IMG/VR virus record: IMGVR_UViG_3300043423_000073
Coordinates: 32,001-96,000 of that record
From: a virus
Taxonomy: Duplodnaviria > Caudoviricetes
DNA: 64,000 bases
Reading direction: 5' to 3' (one strand)
Shown here: in pieces, positions 1,702 through 58,249 of the stretch
Numbering within the stretch: position 1 is the stretch's first letter
Layout of the letters: each line of letters opens with the position of its first letter
Made by a program: the position numbers and the translations under genes
The notes under the pieces: generated by a model
The model's database searches: none
The model's input: only the letters and a program-made list of their open reading frames with translations
Told to the model about the DNA's origin: nothing

Positions 1702-4086
1702 CTACCGTTGTTCCTGTGCCGTGTTCTCTATAAAATTACGGACCCACTTTGTCTTGCCTAGCGATTTAACCGCCCTTAACCCTAACTCTTCTATCAACTG
1801 TTTTTCTGTGCACTCGTCTGGGTTTACGGCTAGGCCAAACTTTTTGATCAACTCCGCCTTGCTAAACGCCTGCTTTGGTTGCCTATAAGGCCCACCGAAC
1901 CAGGCGTAGTAATCAACTGAATTTCTACGGAGCTCGCAGAAGCCAAGCTCTTGATACATGCCTCCTGTGAAGACGGTATTGTCTGCATAGGATGAGACCG
2001 ACTTGGGACTTGCTGCTCTCACAAATGCCGCCAGCAGCCTTGACGCGCCGCCTACCACAGAGCAGCTAGTCGCATAGCGGGTCAGCTCGTACACACCGGC
2101 CTGTCTTTTGCTTCCTCTGCTGCTGACTGTGTGGTTAAACGTCATGGCCGCCACAACCTTGCCATTGTGTCGCAAGCAGTAGGCGGTGCCTCCTCGTGGG
2201 GCGCCTTGTATGTGCACGGCGTTAAAAAACTTTTTGAGCTTAGACGCAGGCGCGACCACAATCTCGCACTGCCGAGCGTACACCCTCTTGCTGACCAACC
2301 CGACTAAATGTTCACAAAAGCGCCTAGCTGCCTGGGCATGAAGACGTACAACGTCCTCGTGCAGAAAAACGAGTCGATATCCTGCTGCTTCGGCCTTTGC
2401 CTTTTGGCGGGCCATCTCTTGTGAGTCTGACCAAAAGTGCGGTACAAAGGTTACTGCGATTTTCTTGTCAGGCACATACACTGTTTGGCGCTTTATTCTT
2501 TCGGCGCCTAGCCAGGCAGCAATTTGCCTCACGTACTTTGCGCAGTAATCCGCCTTGCCGATATCCGTGTAATACTGATGCCACACAAGAGCTTCTGGGT
2601 TTGGATGGGTATGCCAGTCGTCAGGTAGAAACACACAGCTACCTGCAGGCATTACCACCGCCCAACGTACCTTTAATCCACTCTCATCTGCCTGCCTAGC
2701 CTTTTCACGATTCCTGGCCACAGCATTAGGCATAAGCAGCGTCCAGGTAGATTTACACTCGACGAAGCCTTGTCTGGGAATGTAAAAATCAGGCGTCCAG
2801 CTCATACGTTTCGCCTTGTCGCGCGGATAGCGCTCGTCGAATTGCGTGCGGACTGTCTTGTGCCTTTTCAAAAGCTCGCGCAACAAGACGACCTCGCTGT
2901 TACCCTGCACCGTGTAGCCTTTGCCGTTTACCTTAACTTCTTTTCTGGCAAAGCTTGACTTTAAACCTTTGAGCGCTTGCAGAGGATTCTTGTTGGGCTG
3001 CTCAAATCCGTATTTTTGCAACCAGGTGGCCTTGCACTTTGCCATAATCTCTGGGTTTGAAGTCGCGACCTCATGTCCGTAGACACGAAGATTAGTGTTA
3101 CGGATTTTCTCGCGTAACAGCGGGCTGCCCAGGCCAAAGCCGCCATATCTAAACAGGTTTGTTTCGACCATCTTTGCTCGCACCTCCGGGCGCTTCATAG
3201 GATGGTCCACGCCATACTGCTCTGTGTGGCGTCTTTTACGGTTTTCCACTGCCTCAGGGTTTTGCATGTTATGCGCATACCCTGTTTTCTTCTTATAGGT
3301 AGCTGCCGCGCGCTTAACCACCTCTTTTAGCTGCCTCGGACTAGCAACACCGTAGCGTTCCTTATGCGTCTTCTTTCTCTCGCTTACCACTGAGGCAACG
3401 TCCTCTGCCGACTTGTTGCGCCAGGCTTTTGTGATTTTGTTCTTCACCTTGGCAGACTGTGTGGCCCAATCGCTGCCGTAGAGCGCACGATTTGTTTTTA
3501 TTCGCTTGCCCCGAACTGCGGCCACGTCAACCTTGCTCCACGCGGCACTAACTTTTGCTCTCACCTTAGCCGACGCCATTGGGCTAGACCCGCCATAGCG
3601 CTTTACATTGGTCAGCTTTCTTTTCTCGTATACCGCTGCAACCTCGTCAGCAGACTTTTCACTCCATGTCTGCTTGGACTTTTCTGTGCGTAGCTGCCAA
3701 CGGAGCCTTTTACCCGCTTCTGTTGGTAAGCAGTTCTTGCAGATGCAACATAAGACTGCGGTTGGGGTTTTACATAAAAGGCAGGGCCTGTCCATGGCCG
3801 CTACAAGACGTGGCGTGTTGATGCCTAGGCTGTGACGCATCTCATAGACAAACCTACGCCACAGCCTAGCCCGTTTGCCAAGCTGTGCCCAGAACTCCTG
3901 TGCGCCACACTTTCTGGCAGGGTACTGAGCGTAAAGCGACCTAATTGCCGTCTTGTCTTCGTCGGTCAGCCGACAGGGCTTAATCTTTGACTCTACTGAT
4001 GCTGGGTAGTTTGAAGGGTCGAAGTGTTTGCTTGGTTGGCTTAGTCGGCTTGGTTGGTTAAGTTGGTTAAGTTGACCAGCGTTCAT
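1702..4086 (-). CDS. Hef-like homing endonuclease-type protein (Zn finger, ERYGV-type repeats, PD-(D/E)xK nuclease, C-terminal Mom/GNAT-like domain)
   Basis: CxxC pairs; repeated K/TNxxRYG(V)xxP units; PDFY...VECK nuclease motif; C-terminal YELTRYA...GGASRLL...SYAD...GGMYQELGF. Start moved to ATG 4086. Confidence 0.7.
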   Translation of the reverse strand: MNAGQLNQLNQPSRLSQPSKHFDPSNYPASVESKIKPCRLTDEDKTAIRSLYAQYPARKCGAQEFWAQLGKRARLWRRFVYEMRHSLGINTPRLVAAMDRPCLLCKTPTAVLCCICKNCLPTEAGKRLRWQLRTEKSKQTWSEKSADEVAAVYEKRKLTNVKRYGGSSPMASAKVRAKVSAAWSKVDVAAVRGKRIKTNRALYGSDWATQSAKVKNKITKAWRNKSAEDVASVVSERKKTHKERYGVASPRQLKEVVKRAAATYKKKTGYAHNMQNPEAVENRKRRHTEQYGVDHPMKRPEVRAKMVETNLFRYGGFGLGSPLLREKIRNTNLRVYGHEVATSNPEIMAKCKATWLQKYGFEQPNKNPLQALKGLKSSFARKEVKVNGKGYTVQGNSEVVLLRELLKRHKTVRTQFDERYPRDKAKRMSWTPDFYIPRQGFVECKSTWTLLMPNAVARNREKARQADESGLKVRWAVVMPAGSCVFLPDDWHTHPNPEALVWHQYYTDIGKADYCAKYVRQIAAWLGAERIKRQTVYVPDKKIAVTFVPHFWSDSQEMARQKAKAEAAGYRLVFLHEDVVRLHAQAARRFCEHLVGLVSKRVYARQCEIVVAPASKLKKFFNAVHIQGAPRGGTAYCLRHNGKVVAAMTFNHTVSSRGSKRQAGVYELTRYATSCSVVGGASRLLAAFVRAASPKSVSSYADNTVFTGGMYQELGFCELRRNSVDYYAWFGGPYRQPKQAFSKAELIKKFGLAVNPDECTEKQLIEELGLRAVKSLGKTKWVRNFIENTAQEQR

Positions 4087-4095
4087 TGGTTTCTT

Positions 4096-4176
4096 CCGTG
4101 AAAAGAGGAAGGTCCACTGTGGCGTGTGCTGTTCACGGCAACACACAGGACGGCCATCCTATACCACAGTGGACCT
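4096..4176 (-). promoter_or_regulatory. structured 5' leader (3-way junction plus pseudoknot) of the endonuclease gene
   Basis: 13-bp stem 4110-4122/4164-4176 enclosing two hairpins; loop 4132-4138 is complementary to 4096-4102 next to the RBS. Confidence 0.55.
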
Positions 4177-4217: not shown

Positions 4218-6128
4218 TTATTGACCGGTGACCTGGCTCAATGCCTCTTTGAAGGACACGCCCGCCTTGGACACAACAACCTGCAACTGGATTTCATGAA
4301 TCGGAACCTGTGGGATCAAGATAACCGTTACCACCAATATGCCCGCATTACGTGTTGCTGCTGTATTGTTGCGGTCGTCGATAACCACGTCAAAGTCGTA
4401 GAGGCCAGAGCTGTTCTTCACGCTCTGCAGGTAGCTTGTGATGGAGTTACGCAAGCTGCGGCGAACAGCTTCCGTGTTCATCTCCTGCAGTGCATACATC
4501 AGAAACTTCTGTGTGCTGACCTTGATGACGTTGATGATACGGCGTACAGACAACCAGGACAGCGCCGACTGCTGGGCTGTCAGCGTCTGCTGCTCCCACA
4601 GTGCAATGCCCTGACCCACAAAGGTTCGTGTGTAGTTCACATTGGCTTTGTAGAGGTAGTCGGACATGCCCTCGTCGTAGGTATGACGAGCTTTGAGCAC
4701 ATTGAGCAAACCGCGGTTCAAGCCGGCTGGGCTGAAAGCAGGGTTAGCCACGCGGTCAGTGCGAGCACACAAGGCTGCGGCCCAGCCCGAAGGTGGTGCA
4801 TAGACCTGCCTGCCGTTAACCAGATCAGCCTGCAAAAGATCAGGGCAGAACAGTGCGCTGTAAGAGCTGTTGAGGTTCAATGACAAGTTTCGGTAGTCAA
4901 CTGCCGCCTGGAACTGTTGCATCGTCGACGGCACGTCAAGCAAGGCAACACAATCGCCACGACGCTGGGCCAAACTGTCCATGGCAAGCTGCACGATGGG
5001 GTCTGCAATACCTGCGTTCACAATCATGTTGATTTCGTACAACTGCTTGTCTTTGAAGACGTCGAGGGCAGCGGCCACGTCGTACGAGGTAGGAGCCGTG
5101 CCGGAGTTACCGCCAGTGAACTTTACCGCGGTGCTGTTGCTGATAGTGGGCACAGATGGCAGCGAGGACACATTGTTGCGCACACGCAGGTAACCGCTGA
5201 ACGGATTGATCTGGTCTTCCAATTCCATTTGGACGCCAGTTGCGCCGACCTTGGGAGTCAAAGTGGAAGTCCACTCTTCGGCCACCTCGCCGGTTTCTGC
5301 ACGAAGGCGCACAGTGAACTCTTCGTTGATGGAAGCGAGTAACGGATCGGTGATGGGGAGCACTGCGGTGTCTGGAGTGACCGCGCCAGTGTCGACGAAG
5401 GTTGTAACCCCTCCGCCCAGAACCGCGATACGCCCGTAAGCTTCGCCAGTGATACGCCCGTAGACTTCGTAGCCAACTGCACCAACAACGGGGTTCCAGG
5501 CAAGCGTGTTCTTGCCGCCGTTTATACCTGTTACAGGTACTTCGAGTGAACCTAAACTCTTGCCGTTGCTGCCCAAAGCTGCCACCTGATACGCATAGGT
5601 CTCTAACTCCAGCACACCGCCCTCCTCAGACGGCGTGACGGTTAGTTCGGTTGGTGCGTAGACGTTATTGGAAACGATTTCCAAAGAACGGTCTTTGCCG
5701 TAGGATCCTGGGCCTTGGCGCAGATAGAACAATGCGATGGCCGACTCGCCTGCATCTGCGAGACTGTCAATGTCAACTGTGTCTGGGCTGGCTAGACCCA
5801 TAGGGCGCAGCAGCTGCGTAGAATCGGTGGACACGAGCAACAGGCTGGCCGTCAAGTGATCTGAGCCTAACACACGGAAGAACCAGCCTGAGTTGCCTTC
5901 GGTAAAAAAGTTCAAGGCGGACTGAATTGTCATAGAGACGGTTGGGTCAGGATCACCGTACTCACGGATGAAGGAGTCGGCTTCCGTAAAGAACATTGGT
6001 TCAGCCGAGCCTTGTCTGGTCACCACAGGCATCAACACAACAGAGGACGACGAGGAGGTGATGACCTGAGACAGGTTAATCTCTTGGGCGCGGACGTCGC
6101 TCGAACGACGGACGATTTGGGTTGTCAT
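4218..6128 (-). CDS. tail sheath protein
   Basis: 636 aa; C-terminal PPSG...FSPAGLNRG, LSVRR, FDVVIDDRNNT sheath motifs. Confidence 0.92.
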   Translation of the reverse strand: MTTQIVRRSSDVRAQEINLSQVITSSSSSVVLMPVVTRQGSAEPMFFTEADSFIREYGDPDPTVSMTIQSALNFFTEGNSGWFFRVLGSDHLTASLLLVSTDSTQLLRPMGLASPDTVDIDSLADAGESAIALFYLRQGPGSYGKDRSLEIVSNNVYAPTELTVTPSEEGGVLELETYAYQVAALGSNGKSLGSLEVPVTGINGGKNTLAWNPVVGAVGYEVYGRITGEAYGRIAVLGGGVTTFVDTGAVTPDTAVLPITDPLLASINEEFTVRLRAETGEVAEEWTSTLTPKVGATGVQMELEDQINPFSGYLRVRNNVSSLPSVPTISNSTAVKFTGGNSGTAPTSYDVAAALDVFKDKQLYEINMIVNAGIADPIVQLAMDSLAQRRGDCVALLDVPSTMQQFQAAVDYRNLSLNLNSSYSALFCPDLLQADLVNGRQVYAPPSGWAAALCARTDRVANPAFSPAGLNRGLLNVLKARHTYDEGMSDYLYKANVNYTRTFVGQGIALWEQQTLTAQQSALSWLSVRRIINVIKVSTQKFLMYALQEMNTEAVRRSLRNSITSYLQSVKNSSGLYDFDVVIDDRNNTAATRNAGILVVTVILIPQVPIHEIQLQVVVSKAGVSFKEALSQVTGQ

Positions 6129-46433: not shown

Positions 46434-47430
46434 ATTTAGCAAGGGGAAGGTTAGAGCAGGTGACGTTGGCAAGGTTGGTGTGCGTGACGTTGGTAAAGAG
46501 AAAAACAACTATGTGTACGCCTACTACTTTGGCGCAAGCATAGTTTACGTAGGCATCGGGAAGGAGAGCAAGGTGGGAGACTTTTCGAGGGCCTTTAACC
46601 TAGAGGCTCACGCAAAGGTGTATGCCACTTACGGTGAGGCGCGCCGAGGAGAGGTGTCGGTGTCAGCGAAGACGAGAGAATTGCACAAGAAGGGCACCGG
46701 TCGTGAGGCAACCGCTCACCTAGAAGTTCAGGTAGTTGCGCGACAGCTCACACGAAAGTCCGCACGCGCAGTCGAGAGCCTACTGATCAAAACCCTTTGG
46801 CCTTTGCAAACATTGTTGAATGTTAGACAAGGAGGCAGTAACGGTGGTAGGAAGGTAACGGCAACCACGAAGACTAGGTCTGACGGTTTTATAGGGTCTG
46901 CCGAGATTGTGACCAGCCCGGTGACTGCTCGCGCCAAGACTAAAGGGGACGCCGAAGGGCCCTTTACGGAGAAGGGTACGCAGGAGCTGCTAGTCAAGTC
47001 AGGCTGTGTTATACCAAAGGCTGAACTTTTAGGACGTGCGCTAATTAAAGACAGCCTGAGGCGAGAAGACTTTCCTGGCCTGACCGCAGCAGAGTTTAAG
47101 AAATGCGTCGGCGGTATCTTTAGGGCGAGTCCTTGGATGACTGAGAAGCACGAGAGGTGGGTGTATCGACGCGTTGCCTTAACCGAGGAAGGACGAGAAG
47201 GTCGCCGTGCTGGTGGGATGAAGGGCGGGAAGATTGGCGGGAAGATTGGTGGTATCAGAAAAAGAAAATACCTCCCAGAGGACGCCAAAATTATTCAAGC
47301 AATGCAGACGCGTCTGTTCCGTGGCCGACGCCGAGGCGAGGACTTGCGTGAAAAAGAAAAACAACTAGAGGAGTTCAAAAAGCGTGCAATCGCCAAATTC
47401 ACCAAAAGCAACGGAATAAAACCGGCCTAA
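46426..47430 (+). CDS. GIY-YIG-like endonuclease sharing its C-terminal domain with the upstream helicase-like protein
   Basis: YVY...YVGIG, R, ESLLI, LLN; C-terminal ~75 aa aligns with the end of the 44157 ORF. Confidence 0.7.
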   Translation: MSEFSKGKVRAGDVGKVGVRDVGKEKNNYVYAYYFGASIVYVGIGKESKVGDFSRAFNLEAHAKVYATYGEARRGEVSVSAKTRELHKKGTGREATAHLEVQVVARQLTRKSARAVESLLIKTLWPLQTLLNVRQGGSNGGRKVTATTKTRSDGFIGSAEIVTSPVTARAKTKGDAEGPFTEKGTQELLVKSGCVIPKAELLGRALIKDSLRREDFPGLTAAEFKKCVGGIFRASPWMTEKHERWVYRRVALTEEGREGRRAGGMKGGKIGGKIGGIRKRKYLPEDAKIIQAMQTRLFRGRRRGEDLREKEKQLEEFKKRAIAKFTKSNGIKPA

Positions 47431-47435
47431 AAACC

Positions 47436-47898
47436 CTGATAAAACCGGCCTAAACAAGGTGTAAAAGATGAAGTCGGGTCTTATAATAAAAGGCTGTTGT
47501 TTATCTTTTACAAAATTTAGGTTCGCCGAAGGCGATAAGGGTGGGAGCGAAGCGAACACCCTTTAATAAACACTTCCCCAACCCGTAATGTTTTACTTTT
47601 TAACTTTTTAACTTTCGGAAGTCTAACCTTTCGACTTTTCAACCTTTCGACTTTTCGACTCTTTACTTCCCGACGTTCCCCTTCTTACATTACGGGTTGG
47701 GGAAGTGTTCTATGGGTGACGATTCGCTTCGCTCCTCGTCACCGCGCCTTCGGCGAAAAACTGTAAATACTTTTTGTTAGACTCGCAGAGCTTCGGGAGC
47801 TTCGGGTGATTCGGGAGCTTCGGCGTCTTCTCAGGCTTTGACGCCTCTGGGAATCCTCTCGTGAATCCCCGAAGTTTTGTGTAGGCCGGTTTTATCAG
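47436..47898. repeat. nested inverted-repeat element, candidate replication origin
   Basis: Perfect IR pairs 47436-47452/47882-47898, 47522-47534/47745-47757, 47544-47556/47723-47735, 47569-47591/47687-47709 around a pyrimidine-rich repeat core. Confidence 0.85.
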
Positions 47899-47943
47899 AT
47901 TTTAGGAAAGCCTAAAGGCTACATTCAAAAGGCTAAATTCAAA

Positions 47944-48555: not shown

Positions 48556-50026
48556 CCTTTCAAAGGTTTGGGAGCAGGCTAATGCGTCTCAGCGCGAGGC
48601 CCTGTTCGACTTTGCTTACAAGCTCGTCACTGGCGATCCTTTGCTTCCTGTATCACTTCAAGCCTCGCCTCAACCATCGCCTACTGCGCAGTCCGGCTTG
48701 GCTGCCCCACCGCAACCCGCGCCCCAACCTTCAACCCAACCGTCAACACTTCCACTGTCGCCGCAGTCCCAGCAGCTTGCCCGAGTGCCTGCGGTAGTTA
48801 AGCGCGATGACGAGTTTGTTCTTAAAGGTGATCAGGTAGCTGCGTGGGAACTGATCTTAAAGTTTCTCGCAGGTAACGAAAAGTTTTTTGCTCTCCGCGG
48901 TTACGCAGGTACAGGCAAGTCGTTCCTTCTCAAGAGCCTCAAGAAACTCCCGCAGCACAACTTTATCTTTTCGGCAACAACCAATAAGGCCGCCGCCGTA
49001 CTTTCATCTTTCATTGGTGAGCCTGCCAAGACTGTTTATTCGGTCTTAGGTTTGCGCATGGAGCAGGATGACGACAAGCTCGTACTTACGGCCGGCAAGC
49101 GAAGGCAGAATCTAGGTGATAAGCCTATTCTCATTATTGACGAAGCAGGCATGGCTCCGCAGGAGGTTGTGCGTCTTTTGGTTGAGGCGGTAAACACTAC
49201 TGATCTTCGTGTCATCCTCGTTGGCGATCCTGCTCAGCTAAATCCTGTGGGCGAGGTATCGAGCCAAGCGTGGCGCCTACCTTCACCTGCTTGCCGCATC
49301 ACAATGAAGCAGCCACTGCGCTTCGACAATGACCTGCTCACTGTTGCAACAGGTGTTCGAACCGCACTTCGCAAAAAGTCATTCGACTATGACTTTGTTA
49401 CCTCAGCTAACGTTGAGGTCTTGCGTAAGAGTTCCTGGATGGAAAGCATCCTGTCCATTCGTGATTGGGATGCTAACAAGGTAGCCTGCTGGAGAAACAA
49501 AACTGTAAATAAAATAAATGAAGCAGTTAGAGAAGGGCTTGGTTACGAAGACCGGTTCGTGCCAGGAGAGAACATTCTCATGGCCGCTCCTTTGGTTAGC
49601 GACGACACCATTCTCGCCCACACAGACGAAGAGTTTAAAGTCGCCTCAGTCGGCGAGCGGCGCTTTAGCTTGCCGGAGGGTGAGCTTGACGCCTGGGTTC
49701 TAACCTTAGTTGACAAAGACTTTCCGATTTTTGTTCCGCAGAGTGGCGCGGCTTTCCAAGAAGCGCTTTCGAAGAGGGCAAGCCTCGCCTCGAAGCAGGT
49801 CGGCAAGCGTCGCAAAGAACTGTGGTCCCACTTCTGGGATTTGAAAAACCTTATGCAGGACGTCCGTTACGGTTACGCAATGACCACCCACCGACTGCAA
49901 GGAACAACTGTAAATAATGTTTATGTGGATCGCCAAGACATACTGGCGAACCCAAACCCCAAAGAAGGCTACCGATGCTTGTATGTCGCCACAACGCGAG
50001 CGTCTAACTCATTGAAAATCCTATGA
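48512..50026 (+). CDS. Dda/RecD-like SF1B DNA helicase
   Basis: GYAGTGKS, ATTNKAA, IIDEAGM, VGDPAQL, YAMTTHRLQG, LYVATTRA; exact start uncertain. Confidence 0.9.
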   Translation: MLAPLLPWQSPTLFDLSKVWEQANASQREALFDFAYKLVTGDPLLPVSLQASPQPSPTAQSGLAAPPQPAPQPSTQPSTLPLSPQSQQLARVPAVVKRDDEFVLKGDQVAAWELILKFLAGNEKFFALRGYAGTGKSFLLKSLKKLPQHNFIFSATTNKAAAVLSSFIGEPAKTVYSVLGLRMEQDDDKLVLTAGKRRQNLGDKPILIIDEAGMAPQEVVRLLVEAVNTTDLRVILVGDPAQLNPVGEVSSQAWRLPSPACRITMKQPLRFDNDLLTVATGVRTALRKKSFDYDFVTSANVEVLRKSSWMESILSIRDWDANKVACWRNKTVNKINEAVREGLGYEDRFVPGENILMAAPLVSDDTILAHTDEEFKVASVGERRFSLPEGELDAWVLTLVDKDFPIFVPQSGAAFQEALSKRASLASKQVGKRRKELWSHFWDLKNLMQDVRYGYAMTTHRLQGTTVNNVYVDRQDILANPNPKEGYRCLYVATTRASNSLKIL

Positions 50027-50676
50027 AACTCAAATCAACCAAAACCTTAACCATCGATCAATTGCGCGCTCAAGGTGCTAACGCTCCTATCTGGGCTTTG
50101 AACGGCACCAACGAACTGCTGGGCCAGATGGGTGAACTTCATCTGTCAGTGCCTAAGCAGAACGGCGCACGTACCGACCCCTTGGTTCTGTTCGCAACAT
50201 GGCTGCCGGCCAACCTGACCAATCAGATCCCCCGTCAGCAGCTTTTGGACTCTGCCGAGTTTTTGAACGCCGTCAACAATGGCAGCATTGTGCTCATCAC
50301 GCCTGAGTTTGCACAACAGCTCATGACCGAAGACGGTGCGATTGAAGAGCAAGAGCGTGTTACCTGTATGCGCAATGTGGCCAAGAACGCGTTGGCCGGT
50401 CGTCTCCAATCCAAAGACAATGTCTCTGTCGAGGGGTTGCCTTCTTCGGGCGCGCAGGATGAGGACGAAGGCGAAGAGACAGGCGTCTCTGTTGCCTTCC
50501 AAGCCTTGGCCGAGTCGATCCGTGACAAGAACGACGTCAGCGCACTGAACGTGTTGCGCAACCGCAGCCTTACCTCCCAAGAGAAAAAGTTCTTGCGTGC
50601 CTCCGGAACAGTCACCTCGGAGAGCAAGCCCAAGTGCTGGACTTACCTCCGCACTTCTTCCGCCAACCGTTCGTGA
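50023..50676 (+). CDS. hypothetical protein
   Basis: 217 aa, ATGA-coupled, phage-typical codons. Confidence 0.8.
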   Translation: MKLKSTKTLTIDQLRAQGANAPIWALNGTNELLGQMGELHLSVPKQNGARTDPLVLFATWLPANLTNQIPRQQLLDSAEFLNAVNNGSIVLITPEFAQQLMTEDGAIEEQERVTCMRNVAKNALAGRLQSKDNVSVEGLPSSGAQDEDEGEETGVSVAFQALAESIRDKNDVSALNVLRNRSLTSQEKKFLRASGTVTSESKPKCWTYLRTSSANRS

Positions 50677-50748
50677 CCTTTTCACAATCTTTTCATAACC
50701 GTTCGTGATCTTTTCGTAACCAAAACCTTTAATCGAGGACCCACACCA

Positions 50749-51231
50749 ATGACCACCAAAAAAGCTACCACAAAAGCCGCACCTCTGCCTTCGCGCGTCG
50801 CTGAGGCAGCCGCAACTACAAACGCAAAGCCAGCCTCCCCTGCTCAGGCCAAGCCAGCACCTACCCCAAAGCCTCCTCCTCGTTTTCCGAACGGTCCAGC
50901 AAGCGTAGGCAGCAAGCGTATTCTGCCTTCGCACGTTGCCGAGGCAGCCCAATCGAAGGATGTCATTGCTGCTGTTGTTCCTGCGGAAGGGACTTCAATT
51001 GGGGATGCGGTACAGCGTATTGACAACGCTTTCGCCCTTCAAGGGCAGTTGGTCGAGACGCTTACTAGCCGTCTTTGCAACGCAGGTCTTCTCCGCCCTA
51101 TCGACATCGACCTTGAGGTGACCACACCTAAATCTGACACGGCCTTCGGTCAGGCGCTGGAAGAGCGCGCAGCCTTTGTTCAGCACACCAATCTGCGCCT
51201 GAACCTGCTGCTGGACACGCTCGGCGTCTAA
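50749..51231 (+). CDS. hypothetical protein with Ala/Pro/Lys-rich N-terminus
   Basis: 160 aa, RBS GAGG. Confidence 0.75.
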   Translation: MTTKKATTKAAPLPSRVAEAAATTNAKPASPAQAKPAPTPKPPPRFPNGPASVGSKRILPSHVAEAAQSKDVIAAVVPAEGTSIGDAVQRIDNAFALQGQLVETLTSRLCNAGLLRPIDIDLEVTTPKSDTAFGQALEERAAFVQHTNLRLNLLLDTLGV

Positions 51232-51270
51232 AGCACACACCCAGCCCGGAAAAGAAAACTGTAAATTAAT

Positions 51271-51385
51271 TGTGTACCTAGCAGCATGGCGACGGCCTAG
51301 CCCCTTCGCCATCCTAGAACAACACCGGGAAAACCTTTTGGTTAAAAGCTCACGCTGCTTTATGCGGAATGCTGCTAGGTACACA
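51271..51385 (+). ncRNA. putative ~115-nt structured RNA
   Basis: Perfect 17-bp terminal stem 51271-51287/51369-51385 starting just after ACTGTAAAT (51258-51266). Confidence 0.5.
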
Positions 51386-51423
51386 CCCCAATCCCTTCTT
51401 CATCAAAACCTGAAAGCCTTCCT

Positions 51424-51660
51424 ATGTTACACAGCAGTCTCCCACCCTTGGATGTTACCTGCAAAAAGAAGCCAGCCCGAGGCCCCGCCCTCATCGTTCG
51501 TCCCTTGCGTTACATTATCGCGCAGAACTCTTTCGTTGAGCGCGACTCCACTGGCACACCTGTGCTGCGACTCGGCGCAACGGCACGTGAGGCAAAACGG
51601 TGGGCGGCACAAGGTCGCGGTGACATGGTGCAGCGCATTGCCCGTTCCTTGCCGGCCTAA
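51424..51660 (+). CDS. small hypothetical protein
   Basis: 78 aa ORF between two structured RNAs. Confidence 0.5.
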   Translation: MLHSSLPPLDVTCKKKPARGPALIVRPLRYIIAQNSFVERDSTGTPVLRLGATAREAKRWAAQGRGDMVQRIARSLPA

Positions 51661-51682
51661 GGACTAGCAAACTCGACCTGGG

Positions 51683-52471
51683 CAGGAGTGCCTAGGTCTG
51701 TCATTAAAGAAGCGGCGTGGAGCCTTAACCGGCGAAGTCGAAAGACGAGGACACGCTAAGCACGATGCAGAAACATGAGACTTTCGGCGGCATAGGTCAA
51801 TGCTTGCAAACCTTCCGAAGCGTGCAGGGTAGCCCTTGCGTTCACGTTAGGAACCGCACTTTGAAAGCTGCTAAGGTGCTGATAGGAAAGAGGAGTGGGC
51901 TCTGTGGACGCACAACCCACCGCAACTACTGGCAGTGTGTAGCAAGCTGGAATCAAGCCCAGCCTTCTTTAATGACAGACCTTATCGTCGCCAACTCGTT
52001 GATCACCGATCAAGCCACTAAGTAGGCACGTCCGGCAACATGACGGACGTAGAGTGCTGCAGCGCTCTTTGGTCACCCTAGATCCTCCTGGGCTAGGTGA
52101 CGACGAGGTTTATCATGACTTTGTTGGTGGGAAAGAAACCTTCTGCTAACCGCACGCTAGGTATTGAGCGCGTAGCAGTTGCGAGACTGCTTGGCCGCCG
52201 GGAAAGACCGGCACCATCACGCATGTGGGTTTGGCAGGTGTTGTCGGTCAGGTGGAATGAAGTCGCGCTCTGGTCGGCCGGCCAACGTGTACGGCCATTA
52301 ATCCCGACAACCCTGCGCGGGTCGCAACCGCAAACAAGCCTGCAGTCGTGATGGTCACAGTGTTTCAGACGGCACTGCGTCTGCTTGGTGCTGAGCCTAT
52401 GCGGCCAGAGTTACACCAGCCCCTCGTCATAACAGGGGTCAGACGAATTTAGTCGGTATGGGCACTCCCTG
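51683..52471 (+). ncRNA. large ornate non-coding RNA (~790 nt; GOLLD/ROOL-like or new class)
   Basis: Closing helix 51685-51694/52459-52468; perfect 19-bp helix 51694-51712/51964-51982; many hairpins with GNRA loops; 10-bp pseudoknot 52267-52276/52402-52411; no credible ORF. Confidence 0.8.
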
Positions 52472-52535
52472 ACCATCAACCTTCTTGCTTCTTTTGTTTC
52501 CTTTGTTTCCTCACCCATTTTCTTTGAAAGCCCCT

Positions 52536-52745
52536 ATGACCAAAATGATCCGTATTGAGAACGCTGACCTGTCGCGCCACCCTGTGCGCGTCACTGTACA
52601 GCACAAAGTTCCGAGTGGCGAGTGGGTTAATAGCACATGCCACTCCCCAGTGCAGCTTGACAGCCCGACTGCGCAGACCTCGCAGTACATTCACAGCGGA
52701 CAGCGCCTCGTTATTGAGGAGCTCTCGGCGGACGACGCCAGCTAA
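52536..52745 (+). CDS. small hypothetical protein
   Basis: MTKMIRIENADLS..., 69 aa; start moved to ATG 52536. Confidence 0.65.
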   Translation: MTKMIRIENADLSRHPVRVTVQHKVPSGEWVNSTCHSPVQLDSPTAQTSQYIHSGQRLVIEELSADDAS

Positions 52746-52839
52746 GTTGTCAAACAGATTGCTGCTTACCTTCTTTCTTTGGAAGAGGGTAAGCAAGCTT
52801 GCAAGGTGAACCAGTGCCTTGCTTAGGAACGCTCTTGGC

Positions 52840-53280
52840 GTGGGGGCGTGAGATTAATCCTGCCGTAAAATCGGCACCACACCTTTTATATGGTAGTAGA
52901 CTGCTGTAATAGGCAGGCAGATACAAAAGTGAATGACTGCTGGACGCGGGTTCGAATCCCGCCAGGTCCACCATAAGAGCACTAGGCTCTAGTTGTAGCA
53001 ACAGAGTCGCGCAAGTAGCCATACGAAAAAAGGCGCCAAGTACCCAGTCAGGTACAGCGTTATGGCGTAGTGTTCTTCTGACGGGCCTGTACTGGTTTCG
53101 ACAGCGGTAGATAATGGATGTTGACTACTCAGGCAAGCGGAGCCTGCGGAGCAATCCGGAAACCAAGCACGAAAAAGAACTGCCAACGATGCGCAATTCC
53201 TGCAGGCCGCTAACGCCTGATAAAAGTTAGGGGAGCTCCCTGTCCGACGCGCTGATAATGAAGCAAAGCGGATTGGCCCC
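52840..53280 (+). ncRNA. ssrA: circularly permuted (two-piece) tmRNA
   Basis: T-arm GCGGG-TTCGAAT-CCCGC and CAGGTCC-ACCA (52946-52973) lie upstream of the 5' stem GGGCCTG (53083-53089), giving G3-U70; D-loop CTGGTTTCGAC; tag ORF 53182-53220 ANDAQFLQAANA then TGA TAA; outer ends approximate. Confidence 0.92.
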
Positions 53281-53282
53281 TA

Positions 53283-53329
53283 GGCCCGACCGAGTACTCG
53301 TTACTCCTTGATTTCAAAAGAGTCGGGCC
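53283..53329 (+). other. hairpin 3' of the tmRNA coding piece (processing or termination signal)
   Basis: GGCCCGAC...GTCGGGCC stem; no U-tract. Confidence 0.45.
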
Positions 53330-53399
53330 ACCCCTCCCTAATTCTGCCGCAACCCCACCAACAAAAGGAAACCCACGTCGTTCTAGTTAGCGCCGTGGG

Positions 53400-53566
53400 T
53401 TTCTCCGTTTTCGGGCTAAAAACCGAGTAAAACCCGCCTAAACCCCTAAAAATCGGTGTTTTTCGAGTAAAAACCCCGTAAAAACCCGATTTTCTGCTAT
53501 TTTTAGGCATTTTGGTAGGTTTTTCGTGTATAATCAAGGTACAGGAATGTAGGAATACCTATGCCT
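53400..53566 (+). promoter_or_regulatory. putative early promoter, copy 1
   Basis: Phased A/T tracts; GTAGGTTTTTCGTGTATAAT (53515-53534); GTAGGAATACCTATGCCTG; repeated at 58.2-58.4 kb. Confidence 0.75.
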
Positions 53567-53625
53567 GGAAGTTTTACAACCTCAAAACCCAAACCCTCAA
53601 CCAAACCTCACACAAGGAGAAACAA

Positions 53626-54138
53626 ATGTCTTTATCTGACAGCGACAAACTGATGCTTGCCCTTCACGCGAATGACCGGCAAGCTGGTAACGTGCGGCAC
53701 GTAGCACACCAGTGCCTCCAAGATTTGCGCTTGATTCAGCAAGTCAGAACCAAGCCGGTGGATAAATTCAGAAATGAGATCATCGACCAACGTCTTGAGG
53801 TGATGATAGCGGCGCTGCAACGCCTCGTTGCTCAGGTTAGCGACGCCGCGGCCTCAACCAGAGACGCATACAGCACACCAGCTGCCCTGGAGCAGCTGAA
53901 ACTTAAGCACGGCAAAACATATCTTGACCGCGACGGAGATAAGGTAACCGTGCATCTCGTTGCTAACCTACCGGAGTATCCGTTTGTCAACTGTGAGTAT
54001 CCGTTTGTCAACTGTGCAACTGGCGAAACCTTCACGCCAGAAGGCGCCTGGCAACTAGGCCACCCTAGTAGGCGGGACTTGGTGTCAGAGTGCGACGACC
54101 CGCCTGTCACCAATCCTTCGCAAGGAGAAACGAAATGA
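53626..54138 (+). CDS. hypothetical protein with C-terminal LxxGKTY...DLVS domain
   Basis: Start moved to ATG 53626 after AAGGAG; domain shared with three other ORFs. Confidence 0.8.
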   Translation: MSLSDSDKLMLALHANDRQAGNVRHVAHQCLQDLRLIQQVRTKPVDKFRNEIIDQRLEVMIAALQRLVAQVSDAAASTRDAYSTPAALEQLKLKHGKTYLDRDGDKVTVHLVANLPEYPFVNCEYPFVNCATGETFTPEGAWQLGHPSRRDLVSECDDPPVTNPSQGETK

Positions 54139-54386
54139 TTGCGTACTTCCTCACCCTTTTGCTGTGGTCACTTCTTTTTATGCTGGCCCTAAGCCACCTG
54201 GCGACTTACCTCATTCTTCGGCACTCGCTACTACCTACTTTTGGTAGCAAAGTCGGCGCCTTAGTTTGTGCAATCTGTGGCTTGCTCAGCACAGAAGCTT
54301 TCTTTAGTCAAGCTGACTATGAATTGAGTCTTGCCTACGCCTTCGGTGCAAACGGGTTCTTTTTATTGTTAGGAGAAACGAAATGA
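54135..54386 (+). CDS. small membrane protein
   Basis: MIAYFLTLLLWSLLF..., hydrophobic segments; start moved to ATG 54135. Confidence 0.7.
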   Translation: MIAYFLTLLLWSLLFMLALSHLATYLILRHSLLPTFGSKVGALVCAICGLLSTEAFFSQADYELSLAYAFGANGFFLLLGETK

Positions 54387-54889
54387 TTTATCGTTGGAAA
54401 CATCAAAACTGGGTCATGCACGTGCTCGGATTCGTTCAAGGGTTCGGCGAACTCGCCGACAGCATAGTAACCATCTGCTCGCTGGGTTTCTACGGCAGCT
54501 CCTTTGAGATGCGCTGCGCCAGGTACCGGGCAAAGCTTTACTTTGATCTGATGAAAGAGACCCGATCTAAGCTGACGCGAGTCAGTCCGCAGGCAGCGCA
54601 CACAGCAGCTACTGGCGTCACCGCTGCCTCTGCAGATGCTGCCACCCCTCAGCTGAAACTTAAGCACGGCAAAACATACGTTGACCGCAACGGAGATAAG
54701 GTAACTGTGCATCTCTTCGCTGGAGACGAACACAGATATCATTATCATTATCCGTTTGTCGACCGCGCAACTGGCGAGACCTTCTCGCCCCGAGGCGCCT
54801 GGCAACTAGGCCGCCCTAGTGGACTAGACTTGGTGTCACTGGTCGAAGACCCGCCTGTCACCAATCCTTCGCAAGGAGAAACAAAATGA
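54383..54889 (+). CDS. hypothetical protein with C-terminal LxxGKTY...DLVS domain
   Basis: C-terminus nearly identical to the 53626 ORF. Confidence 0.8.
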   Translation: MIYRWKHQNWVMHVLGFVQGFGELADSIVTICSLGFYGSSFEMRCARYRAKLYFDLMKETRSKLTRVSPQAAHTAATGVTAASADAATPQLKLKHGKTYVDRNGDKVTVHLFAGDEHRYHYHYPFVDRATGETFSPRGAWQLGRPSGLDLVSLVEDPPVTNPSQGETK

Positions 54890-56712
54890 AACTCGACAGC
54901 CTCAAAAGCAAATACACGAAGGCCAAGCTTGCCTACTACACTGCCTCCCCCATTCTGACAGACACTGAGTTCGACGCGCTTGAAGACCAACTTCGCAAGC
55001 TCGACCCTAAGTGGCCTGAGCTGACTAAGACTGGCGTCAAGCTAGGCAAGAAGGTTGAGGTCGCGCTGGCAGCCCCTATGCCTTCGCTCAACAAGGTCTA
55101 CCCAGAAGACTTGCCTAAGTGGCTTGCAAAGAACAAGACCGACACCTACGTGGTGATGGAGAAGCTGGACGGCAGCAGCGTCCAACTCACCTACACCGCC
55201 GGAAAGCCCACCAAGCTGGTTACACGTGGCGATGGCAGCAAAGGCAAGGACATTAGCTTCCTCCTTCCCTACCTGCGCTTACCTACCACAAAGGCCGCAC
55301 CCAAAGGCACTGCGGTATTTCGTTGTGAAGCCGTCATGGAGAAGCGTGTCTTTGAAAAGAAGTGGTCGGACGAGTTTGAGAACAGCCGTAACCTTGTTAA
55401 CGGGCTTCTCAATCGCCAAGACGCGCACCCTGCACTGAAAGATGTTCACCTCGTTGTGCTTGGCCGATACGGCACTCCGTTGCTTGAAGGCCTGTCTCAG
55501 GCCACCTTGGCCGGCCTCCGCACTGTGGAGGCGGTTTCTGTTCATCCACACAAAATCACAGCCTCTCTTCTCGCCAACATGCGTAAGTCGTCACCCTACG
55601 ACATGGACGGCCTAGTCGTTGCGCCTTCTAACTTTTTGTTGGACTACAAGAACAATGACAAGCCAAAGAACAGTGTTGCGTTCAAGGTTAACGACGAGGT
55701 GAACGCCGCGGAAGCCACAGTCAAGCGCATCATTTGGCAAGTGACCGGTCGAGGACGCATTGTTCCCAAGATCGAGATTGAGCCGACTCGAATTGACGGC
55801 GTGACGGTGAAGCATGCGGCTGCGCATAACGCAGACTGGATGCTTGAGCGCAAGCTGGGGCCAGGCGCGGTAGTGAAACTACTCCGCAGCGGCGGTGTCA
55901 TCCCCAAGATTGTCGCAGTGGTCAAGCCTGGCAAGTTTCAGCCCCCGAGCATTCCCTACGCCAAAGACGGTTGCCACTTTGTCGTTGCGCGGGCTAGTGC
56001 GGCAACAGACAAACGCATCGACGTGCTGAATGTGGTAAAGTTTATGAAGACGCTGGGCGTCGAATTGATAGCGACAAGCACCGCAGCCAATCTTTGGGAC
56101 GCAGGCCTTGCAACGCCGACTTCATACATTGTCGCCTTTGGTAACGATACTCTCAAGGAACCTATCCTTAGTGTTTACCCAGGACGTCAAGGTGAAAAGA
56201 TTTATGACGAGTTGACCCGCGTCCTCGGTAGCACTATCAGCCTTAAAAAGCTTATTGCCGCCTCGCAGGTGTTTGGCGTCGGTATCGGTGAGCGCAAGCT
56301 CGAACAGATCGAAGCGTCAGGTCAGGCACTCAAGGGCATTTTTACCGAGAACAAGGCTTTGCCTGACTTTGGTGTGGTGCCGGGTTTCAGCACCAAGACA
56401 CTCCTAGTCCTCAAGAAGGGCTACCCAGAGTGGGCCAAGTTTTACAAGATTGCCGCTCGTTACCTAACCATTAACGGCAGTCTTCCGAAGCGAAAGGTGA
56501 GCACGGGCGGCAAGCTTGCAGGCCTTAAAATCTCATTCACTGGCTACCGAGACAAGGCGCAGGAAGAATGGATTACTGCCAACGGTGGCGAGATTGTGCC
56601 CTTTGGCAAAAGTACCACCGTCCTCCTCTACAAAGACGGGGGCAAGGCGAGTAGCAAAATCGACAAGGCTGCCGATAAGGGCGTGCGCGTCTGCGTCTTC
56701 CAAGACCTGTGA
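54886..56712 (+). CDS. ligA: NAD-dependent DNA ligase
   Basis: YY...TDTEFD (domain Ia), EKLDG, TRGDG, DGLVV, AFK, RSGGVIPKI, C-terminal BRCT (FTG). Confidence 0.95.
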   Translation: MKLDSLKSKYTKAKLAYYTASPILTDTEFDALEDQLRKLDPKWPELTKTGVKLGKKVEVALAAPMPSLNKVYPEDLPKWLAKNKTDTYVVMEKLDGSSVQLTYTAGKPTKLVTRGDGSKGKDISFLLPYLRLPTTKAAPKGTAVFRCEAVMEKRVFEKKWSDEFENSRNLVNGLLNRQDAHPALKDVHLVVLGRYGTPLLEGLSQATLAGLRTVEAVSVHPHKITASLLANMRKSSPYDMDGLVVAPSNFLLDYKNNDKPKNSVAFKVNDEVNAAEATVKRIIWQVTGRGRIVPKIEIEPTRIDGVTVKHAAAHNADWMLERKLGPGAVVKLLRSGGVIPKIVAVVKPGKFQPPSIPYAKDGCHFVVARASAATDKRIDVLNVVKFMKTLGVELIATSTAANLWDAGLATPTSYIVAFGNDTLKEPILSVYPGRQGEKIYDELTRVLGSTISLKKLIAASQVFGVGIGERKLEQIEASGQALKGIFTENKALPDFGVVPGFSTKTLLVLKKGYPEWAKFYKIAARYLTINGSLPKRKVSTGGKLAGLKISFTGYRDKAQEEWITANGGEIVPFGKSTTVLLYKDGGKASSKIDKAADKGVRVCVFQDL

Positions 56713-57920: not shown

Positions 57921-58249
57921 CTGACGAAACCTCGCCTTGGTACAAAGGCGTTTTGCGACACAGCTTCGGCAGTGCGCAGACCGGCCACCCTGTGGCCTAC
58001 AAGTTTCTTGGTACCACCCGCTACGGCCCAACCTGGGCCCTAAAGTTTAAGGGTGCCAAGGGATTCAATCAGGTCACGCAAGAGTACGCAGGTAAAAACT
58101 GCATGGGTCTTTTGTTAGGCAAGGTACTCCTAAATGACGCCTCCCAAAAGCTTGGTGATAGGCGCCTCACGCAGTGGCTTGCCGCGCATAACGCGCTCAA
58201 GGCTGACAAAACTACTAAGCCCTCTCGAAAAACACGTAAAAACCCCTAA
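57917..58249 (+). CDS. hypothetical protein
   Basis: 110 aa, ATGA-coupled. Confidence 0.7.
   Translation: MTDETSPWYKGVLRHSFGSAQTGHPVAYKFLGTTRYGPTWALKFKGAKGFNQVTQEYAGKNCMGLLLGKVLLNDASQKLGDRRLTQWLAAHNALKADKTTKPSRKTRKNP

Follow-up and report, generated by a model that had tools for sequence, protein, structure and literature searches.

A lineage-specific insert with a permuted tmRNA gene and a candidate large structured RNA in a phiRSL1-like jumbo phage

The stretch of DNA considered here (the window, 64,000 nucleotides) is made up of bases 32001-96000 of the 154,699-bp IMG/VR virus record IMGVR_UViG_3300043423_000073, which has a completeness rating of 65%. It contains a 2.2-kb island in which a promoter-like motif, a stem-loop of 115 nucleotides (nt), an open reading frame (ORF) for 78 amino acids (aa), a strongly folding non-coding stretch of about 820 nt, an ORF for 69 aa, two hairpins and a circularly permuted gene for a two-piece transfer-messenger RNA (tmRNA) follow each other on the plus strand. 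All these elements, which a preliminary description had listed, were found in that orientation. By comparison with related phages, the island is a lineage-specific accessory insert with RNAs and two small genes. Our reading, to which we give a probability of roughly 0.55, is that it forms an accessory cassette in the replication module, in a variable slot flanked by the phrog_17686 gene and the gene for an NAD-dependent DNA ligase, that it is probably transcribed as one unit, and that its parts are independent of each other.

The phage itself can be placed by its tail sheath gene (4218-6128, minus strand), the product of which is 45-49% identical to those of Ralstonia phage phiRSL1, the Burkholderia phages BcepSauron, BcepSaruman and BCSR5, and Achromobacter phage Motura, all myoviruses of 220-264 kb with Burkholderiales hosts. 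From this kinship follows that we are dealing with a jumbo phage of that group, the window being a piece of a phiRSL1/BcepSauron-like jumbo myovirus, and the host is likely to be a betaproteobacterium. The same phage, recognized by identical sequence or gene order, is present in at least three other samples.

In the nearest relatives the backbone around the slot consists of a helicase gene, the phrog_17686 gene, one or two small genes and the NAD ligase gene, and the island is missing. To exemplify, consider the two nearest metagenomic relatives, the contigs L214 and L215, in which phrog_17686 is 36-39%, the ligase 43-44% and the helicase 37-57% identical to the corresponding protein of the window. 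The gene order is helicase, phrog_17686, a 139-aa gene, a 103-aa gene and ligase in L215, and phrog_17686, a 130-aa gene, a 153-aa gene and ligase in L214, and about 1-1.4 kb separate the phrog_17686 gene from the ligase gene in these contigs, as compared to 4.2 kb in the window. A homologue of phrog_17686 is found also in five of five cultured relatives (31-35% identity), none of which contains a permuted tmRNA or any island DNA; in Motura and phiRSL1 the homologue is followed by a tight row of small ORFs with no large gap. Since the relatives keep the backbone and lack the island, the island is a lineage-specific insertion in a variable slot. The slot must even be described as hypervariable, since in contig L005, a 90%-identical relative, identity to the window has already dropped to 43% over 47 aa for the gene that follows phrog_17686. 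Searches with the helicase, the tail sheath and an alignment of phrog_17686 retrieved no relatives from IMG/VR or the JGI metagenomes, and among 1.84 billion representatives the next relatives beyond the query's own 50%-identity cluster were only 39% identical.

Co-occurrence of the elements in other genomes, which had been set beforehand as the test of a functional module, was seen neither at about 97 loci with homologues of the 69-aa protein, nor at 60 viral tmRNA loci, nor in seven relatives. The loci of the 69-aa homologues (3 viral, 2 Logan, 12 bacterial and 80 metagenomic, some of them duplicates) contain the large RNA, the small RNA or any tmRNA in no case. The tmRNA loci were reached with a 16-mer from the coding piece of the tmRNA, which led to 72 IMG/VR loci with 60 tmRNA genes, 28 of them permuted. 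Neither the large nor the small RNA was detected by nhmmer at the loci of these 60 tmRNAs, and beside 18 of the permuted ones there was no GOLLD, ROOL or other large Rfam RNA. As far as such comparisons go, the parts of the island are neighbours rather than components of a co-evolved machine or of a demonstrated system.

The 69-aa ORF (ORF69) illustrates this independence. By its coding score of +0.40 and its homologues, 13 from a protein search and 190 from metagenomes, it is a real, conserved gene and a common small gene of temperate betaproteobacterial phages. Homologues occur in prophages of Methyloversatilis, Paucibacter, Burkholderiaceae, Thiobacillus and others, where they sit in dense arrays of small phage genes, and a 96%-identical gene is found on a 665-bp contig of NCBI assembly GCA_041443065.1. 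The AF2 model of the protein (pLDDT 88.5) is a six-strand beta-sandwich, for which a Foldseek search of the PDB returned nothing better than E 0.14 and no match to an RNA-binding fold; an RNA-binding fold was accordingly rejected. On one small temperate-type betaproteobacterial phage contig with a 69-aa homologue (L003), a Betaproteobacteria-1 RNA (RF02932, 90.5 bits) was observed at 3505-3628, about 1.7 kb upstream of the homologue; this RNA is unrelated to the 115-nt element.

The part of the island with the greatest extent is the stretch 51661-52484, which a crude gene call ranks as the second-largest non-coding gap of the record. It has no coding signal on the plus strand and no ORF above 105 aa (stop to stop) on either strand, and its six longest reading frames, three per strand, have no match in Pfam or PHROG; a hidden or decayed gene was therefore dropped as a candidate, the signal and the matches being absent. 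A repeated mobile element of the kind called a miniature inverted-repeat transposable element (MITE) was dropped as well, since the inverted repeats are single-copy in the record. The stretch folds at -332.5 kcal/mol, with z-scores of -5.1 and -4.7, while other gaps and equal-length coding controls from the same genome give values from -0.03 to -2.0. The plus strand is more stable than the minus strand by 29 kcal/mol and its fold includes 30 G-U pairs; in the neighbouring genes the bias is the reverse, the minus strand folding better. A perfect 19-bp inverted repeat pairs 51693-51711 with 51963-51981 over a long range, the 149-nt sub-domain 52210-52358 is the most robust part (z -4.56, helix probabilities near 1), and the middle part has a z-score of -3.5. 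Local z-scores over 150 nt do not delimit the large RNA, because its stability stems from long-range helices. We infer from folding alone that the 115-nt and 820-nt stretches would be separate stable RNAs, and for the latter a stable structured RNA of unassigned role is the most likely prediction of the fold.

Homologues of this putative RNA were sought in several ways. With 3 kb as query, and with 851 nt against all 4227 families, no Rfam match was obtained for it, either at the gathering threshold or at E<=10. The model of the conserved 3' region of GOLLD (RF02032) matched at E<=10 neither in the whole record nor in the 851-nt search; the ROOL covariance model (RF03087) likewise had no match at E<=10, in a search that gave none in control genomes either. 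Intron_gpI and the group II domains had no match at E<=10 in the 851 nt, and group-II-D1D4-1 had none in the whole record; the group I model did score on an unrelated locus (L059). There was no homologue by blastn in INPHARED, none in the five cultured relatives, and none by nhmmer in 20 loci around 69-aa homologues, in the 72 viral tmRNA loci or in 80 metagenome loci, and 400 Burkholderiales genomes gave chance hits of 22-44 nt only. A covariance model of the most stable domain was without match in 28 records (23 tmRNA contigs taken whole and the five cultured relatives), and two exact-word scans of IMG/VR returned chance k-mers only.

The tmRNA gene, by contrast with this orphan, belongs to a known family. 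ARAGORN calls one permuted tmRNA at 52881-53311 with the tag ANDAQFLQAANA followed by two stops, and RF04321 (tmRNA_permuted) scores 83.4 bits against a cut-off of 47 over model positions 1-213 of 213, so that the permuted tmRNA named in the preliminary description is borne out and is a member of this family. On beta_tmRNA (RF01850) it reaches 68.9 bits, under the cut-off of 84; other viral permuted tmRNAs reach 90-148 bits on the same model, from which follows that the tmRNA of the window is divergent among phage tmRNAs. Its acceptor piece runs to ...CCACCA at about 52972, its coding piece begins at about 53084, and the tag frame is 53182-53223. The order is permuted, in that GGGUUCGAAUCCC...CCACCA lies 5' of GGGCCUGUACUGGUUUCGACAG, with the T-arm and the CCA end upstream of resume codon, tag and stop. 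As in the tmRNAs known from phages, among them two-piece ones of betaproteobacterial type, there are a T-arm, a CCA end, a resume codon and a tag that begins AND..., but the tag ends in ANA and not in LAA. In 400 sampled Burkholderiales genomes the T-arm was the only part of the molecule to be matched. ARAGORN finds it without neighbouring tRNA genes; in the whole record just one tRNA gene was found, at a distance of about 28 kb and beyond the limits of the window.

tmRNA genes are known from huge phages, where release of stalled ribosomes has been proposed as the role of their products (PMC7162821). The present tmRNA is a working-looking, ordinary if divergent phage tmRNA, which would be processed to two pieces and take part in trans-translation together with SmpB. 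The 155 kb of the record contain no SmpB gene, and therefore host SmpB would be needed. In three other loci (L063:8550-9879, L086 and L087) a divergent permuted tmRNA with the tag ANDNTFAQTRLVA lies inside a tRNA array and adjoins ORF-free gaps of about 1.3 kb, to which no Rfam family could be assigned, and locus L059 has a group I intron near its tmRNA. A scan of the tmRNA loci for ORF-free gaps was discarded, since in the window spurious ORFs of 84-86 aa cover the large RNA.

That the island may be read as one transcription unit depends on the signals at its ends. The motif ACTGTAAAT lies at 51258-51266 and occurs 16 times in exact form over the whole record (13 times on the plus, 3 times on the minus strand), when about 0.5 copies per strand are expected; two near sites come in addition. 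Its strand tracks the orientation of the genes, its wider consensus is AAACTGTAAATA, and the same motif lies upstream of the phrog_17686 gene in the relatives L005, L006, L007 and L214. From over-representation, agreement with gene orientation and conservation in relatives follows that this is a real, conserved promoter-like signal, and as such the ACTGTAAAT/AAACTGTAAAT motif would act as a phage-type promoter. The copy at 51258 is the only one within the island. At the other end, a hairpin at 53367-53404 is followed by CCGUUUU up to 53411; it was absent from the preliminary description and was missed also by our pattern scan for terminators, which allows loops of 3-8 only. The fold makes this hairpin the likely end of the unit, and ahead of it the scan of the island predicted no intrinsic terminator. 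The two strong hairpins which the preliminary description had placed near 52763-52822 were recovered in a fold of 52746-52912 (-59.7 kcal/mol, z -3.39); no U-run comes after them, and the pattern scan did not report them as terminators. The motif and hairpin predictions hence give a pattern of one promoter, no internal terminator and one terminator, which fits the island, and from co-orientation, the single motif and the lack of an internal predicted terminator follows that a common precursor is plausible.

The putative transcript would begin with the 115-nt stem-loop, which starts five bases past the motif, has a folding energy of -52.6 kcal/mol (z -6.55) that none of 200 shuffles equalled, and is closed by a perfect 17-bp inverted repeat. 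A search with 191 nt found no Rfam family for it at E<=10. Several other copies of the motif have a 5' hairpin and a CU-rich (pyrimidine-rich) leader downstream, and because these copies also precede 5' hairpins, the 115-nt element is best seen as a 5' leader structure. Most likely it is an oversized 5'-terminal stem-loop of the transcript and leader of the 78-aa ORF (ORF78), or else an RNase III site, and not a free small RNA. Early transcripts of T7 and lambda carry both stem-loops for processing by RNase III and 5'-terminal stabilising hairpins. The perfect 17- and 19-bp helices of the island resemble these in their position, one at the beginning and one in the interior of a transcript that is likely polycistronic, and the resemblance extends to the 5' hairpins behind other motif copies; they differ from the RNase III sites in being somewhat under two full turns in length, and cleavage at them is a prediction.

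It is uncertain whether ORF78, the first reading frame after the stem-loop, is a real gene. Its coding score is +0.25 in frame and -0.23 out of frame, and gene prediction on a further contig of this phage includes it; no homologue was found among 5.8 billion proteins or in IMG/VR, Pfam and PHROG gave no match, and the ESM Atlas model is poor (pLDDT 0.41). ORF78 and ORF69 have in common the start context TGAAAGCC(N2-4)CTATG (51411-51426 and 52525-52538) with no clear Shine-Dalgarno sequence, and TGAAAGCC occurs only four times on the plus strand of the record.

The following sequence of events would account for the island as a cassette of independent parts. Transcription would start at the phage-type promoter AAACTGTAAAT at 51258, give a transcript that opens with a long stem-loop, stabilising or marking its 5' end, and stop at the hairpin and U-run of 53367-53411. 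This precursor would then be cleaved by host RNases: RNase III would act on the two perfect helices, of 17 and 19 bp, and the tmRNA would be cut by the enzymes that normally process tmRNAs. The products would be an mRNA for the doubtful 78-aa orphan protein, a compactly folded RNA of about 0.8 kb and unassigned role, an mRNA for the 69-aa beta-sandwich protein, and a two-piece tmRNA that, with host SmpB, frees stalled ribosomes during infection. What is observed is the arrangement of the elements, their insertion, the absence of joint occurrence in other genomes and the family to which the tmRNA belongs; the single transcript, the processing by RNases and a stable, functional RNA from the 820-nt stretch are inferred.

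Several observations weigh against this reading. The closest relatives (71-96% identity) are only short contigs, and the Logan contigs among them (71-90% identity) stop before the island, so that its absence is established in more distant kin; the record, moreover, is just 65% complete. The word CTGTAAT at 52902-52908, just upstream of the tmRNA, resembles the phage motif and a -10 box, and elements of the island may have separate promoters. As to the large RNA, it is known from one sequence, without support from covariation, the other copy that was read (L129) being 100% identical; its 5' domain alone, apart from the 19-bp closing helix, has a z-score of only -2.45; and its predicted long-range pairings shift with the chosen boundaries, from which follows that no single secondary structure can be claimed for it.

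Under a rival reading, which goes back to the preliminary description, the same elements form a co-evolved, co-transcribed module acting on host translation, with small proteins that may bind to the RNAs and a large RNA that may process, chaperone or cage the pieces of the tmRNA. In favour of such a module, the elements are co-oriented and tightly packed, with one promoter motif and one terminator-like hairpin at the ends, and GOLLD and ROOL, which lie near tRNA islands, assemble into cages in which tRNAs or ribosomes might be enclosed (bioRxiv 10.1101/2024.12.08.627333). A link to translation does survive, in that the tmRNA acts on it. A functional module is not supported: about 97 loci have a homologue of the 69-aa gene without the RNAs, nhmmer found no large RNA at 60 viral tmRNA loci, a covariance model of its most stable domain had no match in 23 tmRNA records taken whole, and the relatives lack the island. 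Binding of RNA by the small proteins also found no support, the 69-aa beta-sandwich being without an RNA-binding relative and the 78-aa ORF being an orphan with a poor model. The same applies to a large RNA that processes, chaperones or cages the tmRNA: base pairing between the two was dropped, as their complementarity is not in excess over shuffles (z +0.3, in a crude whole-length duplex test). We regard the module as highly improbable. A role of the 820-nt stretch at the level of DNA, for instance as a replication origin or R-loop priming site of the replication module, has even less to recommend it. It would agree with the position, with a Dda-like helicase on one side, the ligase on the other and a promoter upstream, and with the long inverted repeats, but the maximum of the cumulative GC skew and the point at which the genes change strand are elsewhere, at 46-48 kb, which makes an origin in the stretch unlikely. 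Besides, 51661-52484 contains no AT-rich unwinding element or iteron, its fold advantage is strand-specific, and the backbone of the relatives does without it.

A different question is whether the stretch has a function at all, or has it only in cis. It could be non-functional filler, a decayed gene or a recombination scar from the insertions, with a stability that is fortuitous or due to a few long inverted repeats. This would explain why no collection searched contains a homologue; the slot is hypervariable, the perfect repeats of 17 and 19 bp give the impression of recent origin and not of long evolution, the 5' domain reaches a z-score of just -2.45, and there is a small coding-like bump at 52200-52350. 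Against filler, the whole stretch (z about -5) and its 149-nt domain (z -4.6) lie far past the other gaps and the coding controls of the same genome, and the strand asymmetry of 29 kcal/mol together with the 30 G-U pairs favours an RNA read from the plus strand. Furthermore, none of six frames has a trace of a protein family, and 0.8 kb of junk is rarely kept by phage genomes, the present record being about 89% coding by a crude gene call. For these reasons we hold filler to be unlikely, though it deserves to be taken seriously. The stretch might also act in cis, not as a free RNA but as a long structured leader or processing scaffold that affects stability, translation or release of the ORF69 mRNA and the tmRNA precursor. 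When the leader of ORF69 is included in the fold, alternative long-range pairings of 51704-51712 with 52519-52527 adjoin its start codon, and the unusual start context (TGAAAGCC..CTATG) that ORF78 and ORF69 have in common would fit such control. Alternative pairings of this kind are, however, predictions from a single sequence, and 69-aa homologues elsewhere have ordinary short leaders with no such RNA upstream, which leaves a role in cis improbable.

With the cassette of independent parts as our preferred reading, the island may be compared with moron-type insertions. Like these, it has its own promoter-like motif and terminator-like hairpin, sits between backbone genes and is absent from relatives, and its 69-aa gene is common to unrelated temperate phages; the difference is that its cargo is mostly non-coding RNA instead of protein genes.

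Large RNAs with elaborate folds are rare, and few phage examples are known. GOLLD and ROOL are large phage RNAs that build RNA-only cages, to which no purpose has been assigned, and the large stretch is similar to them in belonging to the size class of about 600-800 nt, in being phage-borne and in adjoining a tRNA-like gene (bioRxiv 10.1101/2024.12.08.627333). It differs in that it matches neither covariance model even at E<=10, in that it has no homologues and hence no consensus structure or covariation, and in its distance of about 28 kb from the record's only tRNA gene found, when GOLLD and ROOL lie near tRNA islands. It is a tentative proposal, which may well turn out to be wrong, that 51661-52484 is the first member of a new class of large compact phage RNAs, GOLLD- and ROOL-like in size and in the tRNA-like neighbour, unrelated to them in sequence and structure, and confined so far to one phiRSL1-like jumbo phage lineage. 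If true, the small set formed by GOLLD and ROOL would gain another large RNA, unrelated to them and situated next to a phage tmRNA, and with it a Gram-negative jumbo-phage setting for asking what large RNAs do. The value is limited in that the tmRNA is ordinary if divergent, the small genes are unrelated passengers and the large RNA comes from one sequence; what keeps the interest is one candidate large structured RNA of a phage, an orphan outside the known RNA families.

Table 1. Elements of the island and its flanks (window coordinates)
Feature	Position	Strand	Basis
Left flank: phrog_17686 gene (50023-50676) and 160-aa gene (50749-51231)	50023..51231	+	PHROG match 1.8e-20
Promoter-like motif AAACTGTAAAT(T)	51255..51266	+	over-represented motif, kept in relatives; promoter function putative
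115-nt stem-loop	51271..51385	+	folding; perfect 17-bp closing helix
ORF78 (78 aa), orphan, gene status uncertain	51424..51660	+	modest coding score
Non-coding, strongly folding stretch of ~820 nt, candidate large structured RNA	51661..52484	+	fold z, strand asymmetry
ORF69 (69 aa), conserved small phage protein, predicted beta-sandwich	52536..52745	+	coding score, homologues, AF2 model
Two hairpins (52761-52798, 52801-52822) between ORF69 and tmRNA	52761..52822	+	fold
Circularly permuted two-piece tmRNA gene	52881..53311	+	ARAGORN; RF04321
Terminator-like hairpin (11+4 bp), then CCGUUUU	53367..53411	+	fold of 53300-53430; function putative
Right flank: NAD-dependent DNA ligase	54886..56712	+	Pfam and PHROG matches

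Some further observations concern the surroundings of the island. After the terminator-like hairpin comes an AT-rich spacer (53410-53545) with four (G)TAAAAACCC(G)-like words and, at its end, TGTATAAT, which resembles an extended -10 box; about 85 nt separate this box from the next gene (ATG at 53626). The spacer could be an operator or iteron array with a host-type promoter for the downstream genes. An 18-nt leader, AACCTCACACAAGGAGAA, is found about six times before genes, as judged from 12-mer counts over the whole record, for example at 53583-53600. The genes 53626-54138 and 54383-54889, to the right of the island, are paralogues with 81.5% DNA identity over the last ~250 nt, and partial copies near 58229, 60020 and 60378 make this a multi-copy C-terminal module of the same variable region.

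Farther away, an ORF-free gap of 516 nt (47428-47943) has the promoter motif at 47760 followed by tandem GAGCTTCGGG-like repeats, and coincides with the cumulative GC-skew maximum and the gene-strand switch, which makes it a candidate origin or divergent control region. Adjoining the tail sheath gene, a protein of 813 aa (1702-4146, minus strand) has strong matches to HNH and homing-endonuclease PHROGs. Outside the window, the crude gene call leaves a gap of 1007 nt (G000:C1:127759-128765, or 95759-96765 on the scale of the window), the plus strand of which is 42 kcal/mol more stable than the minus strand with a z-score of just -1.8; this gap may be a missed gene or another RNA.

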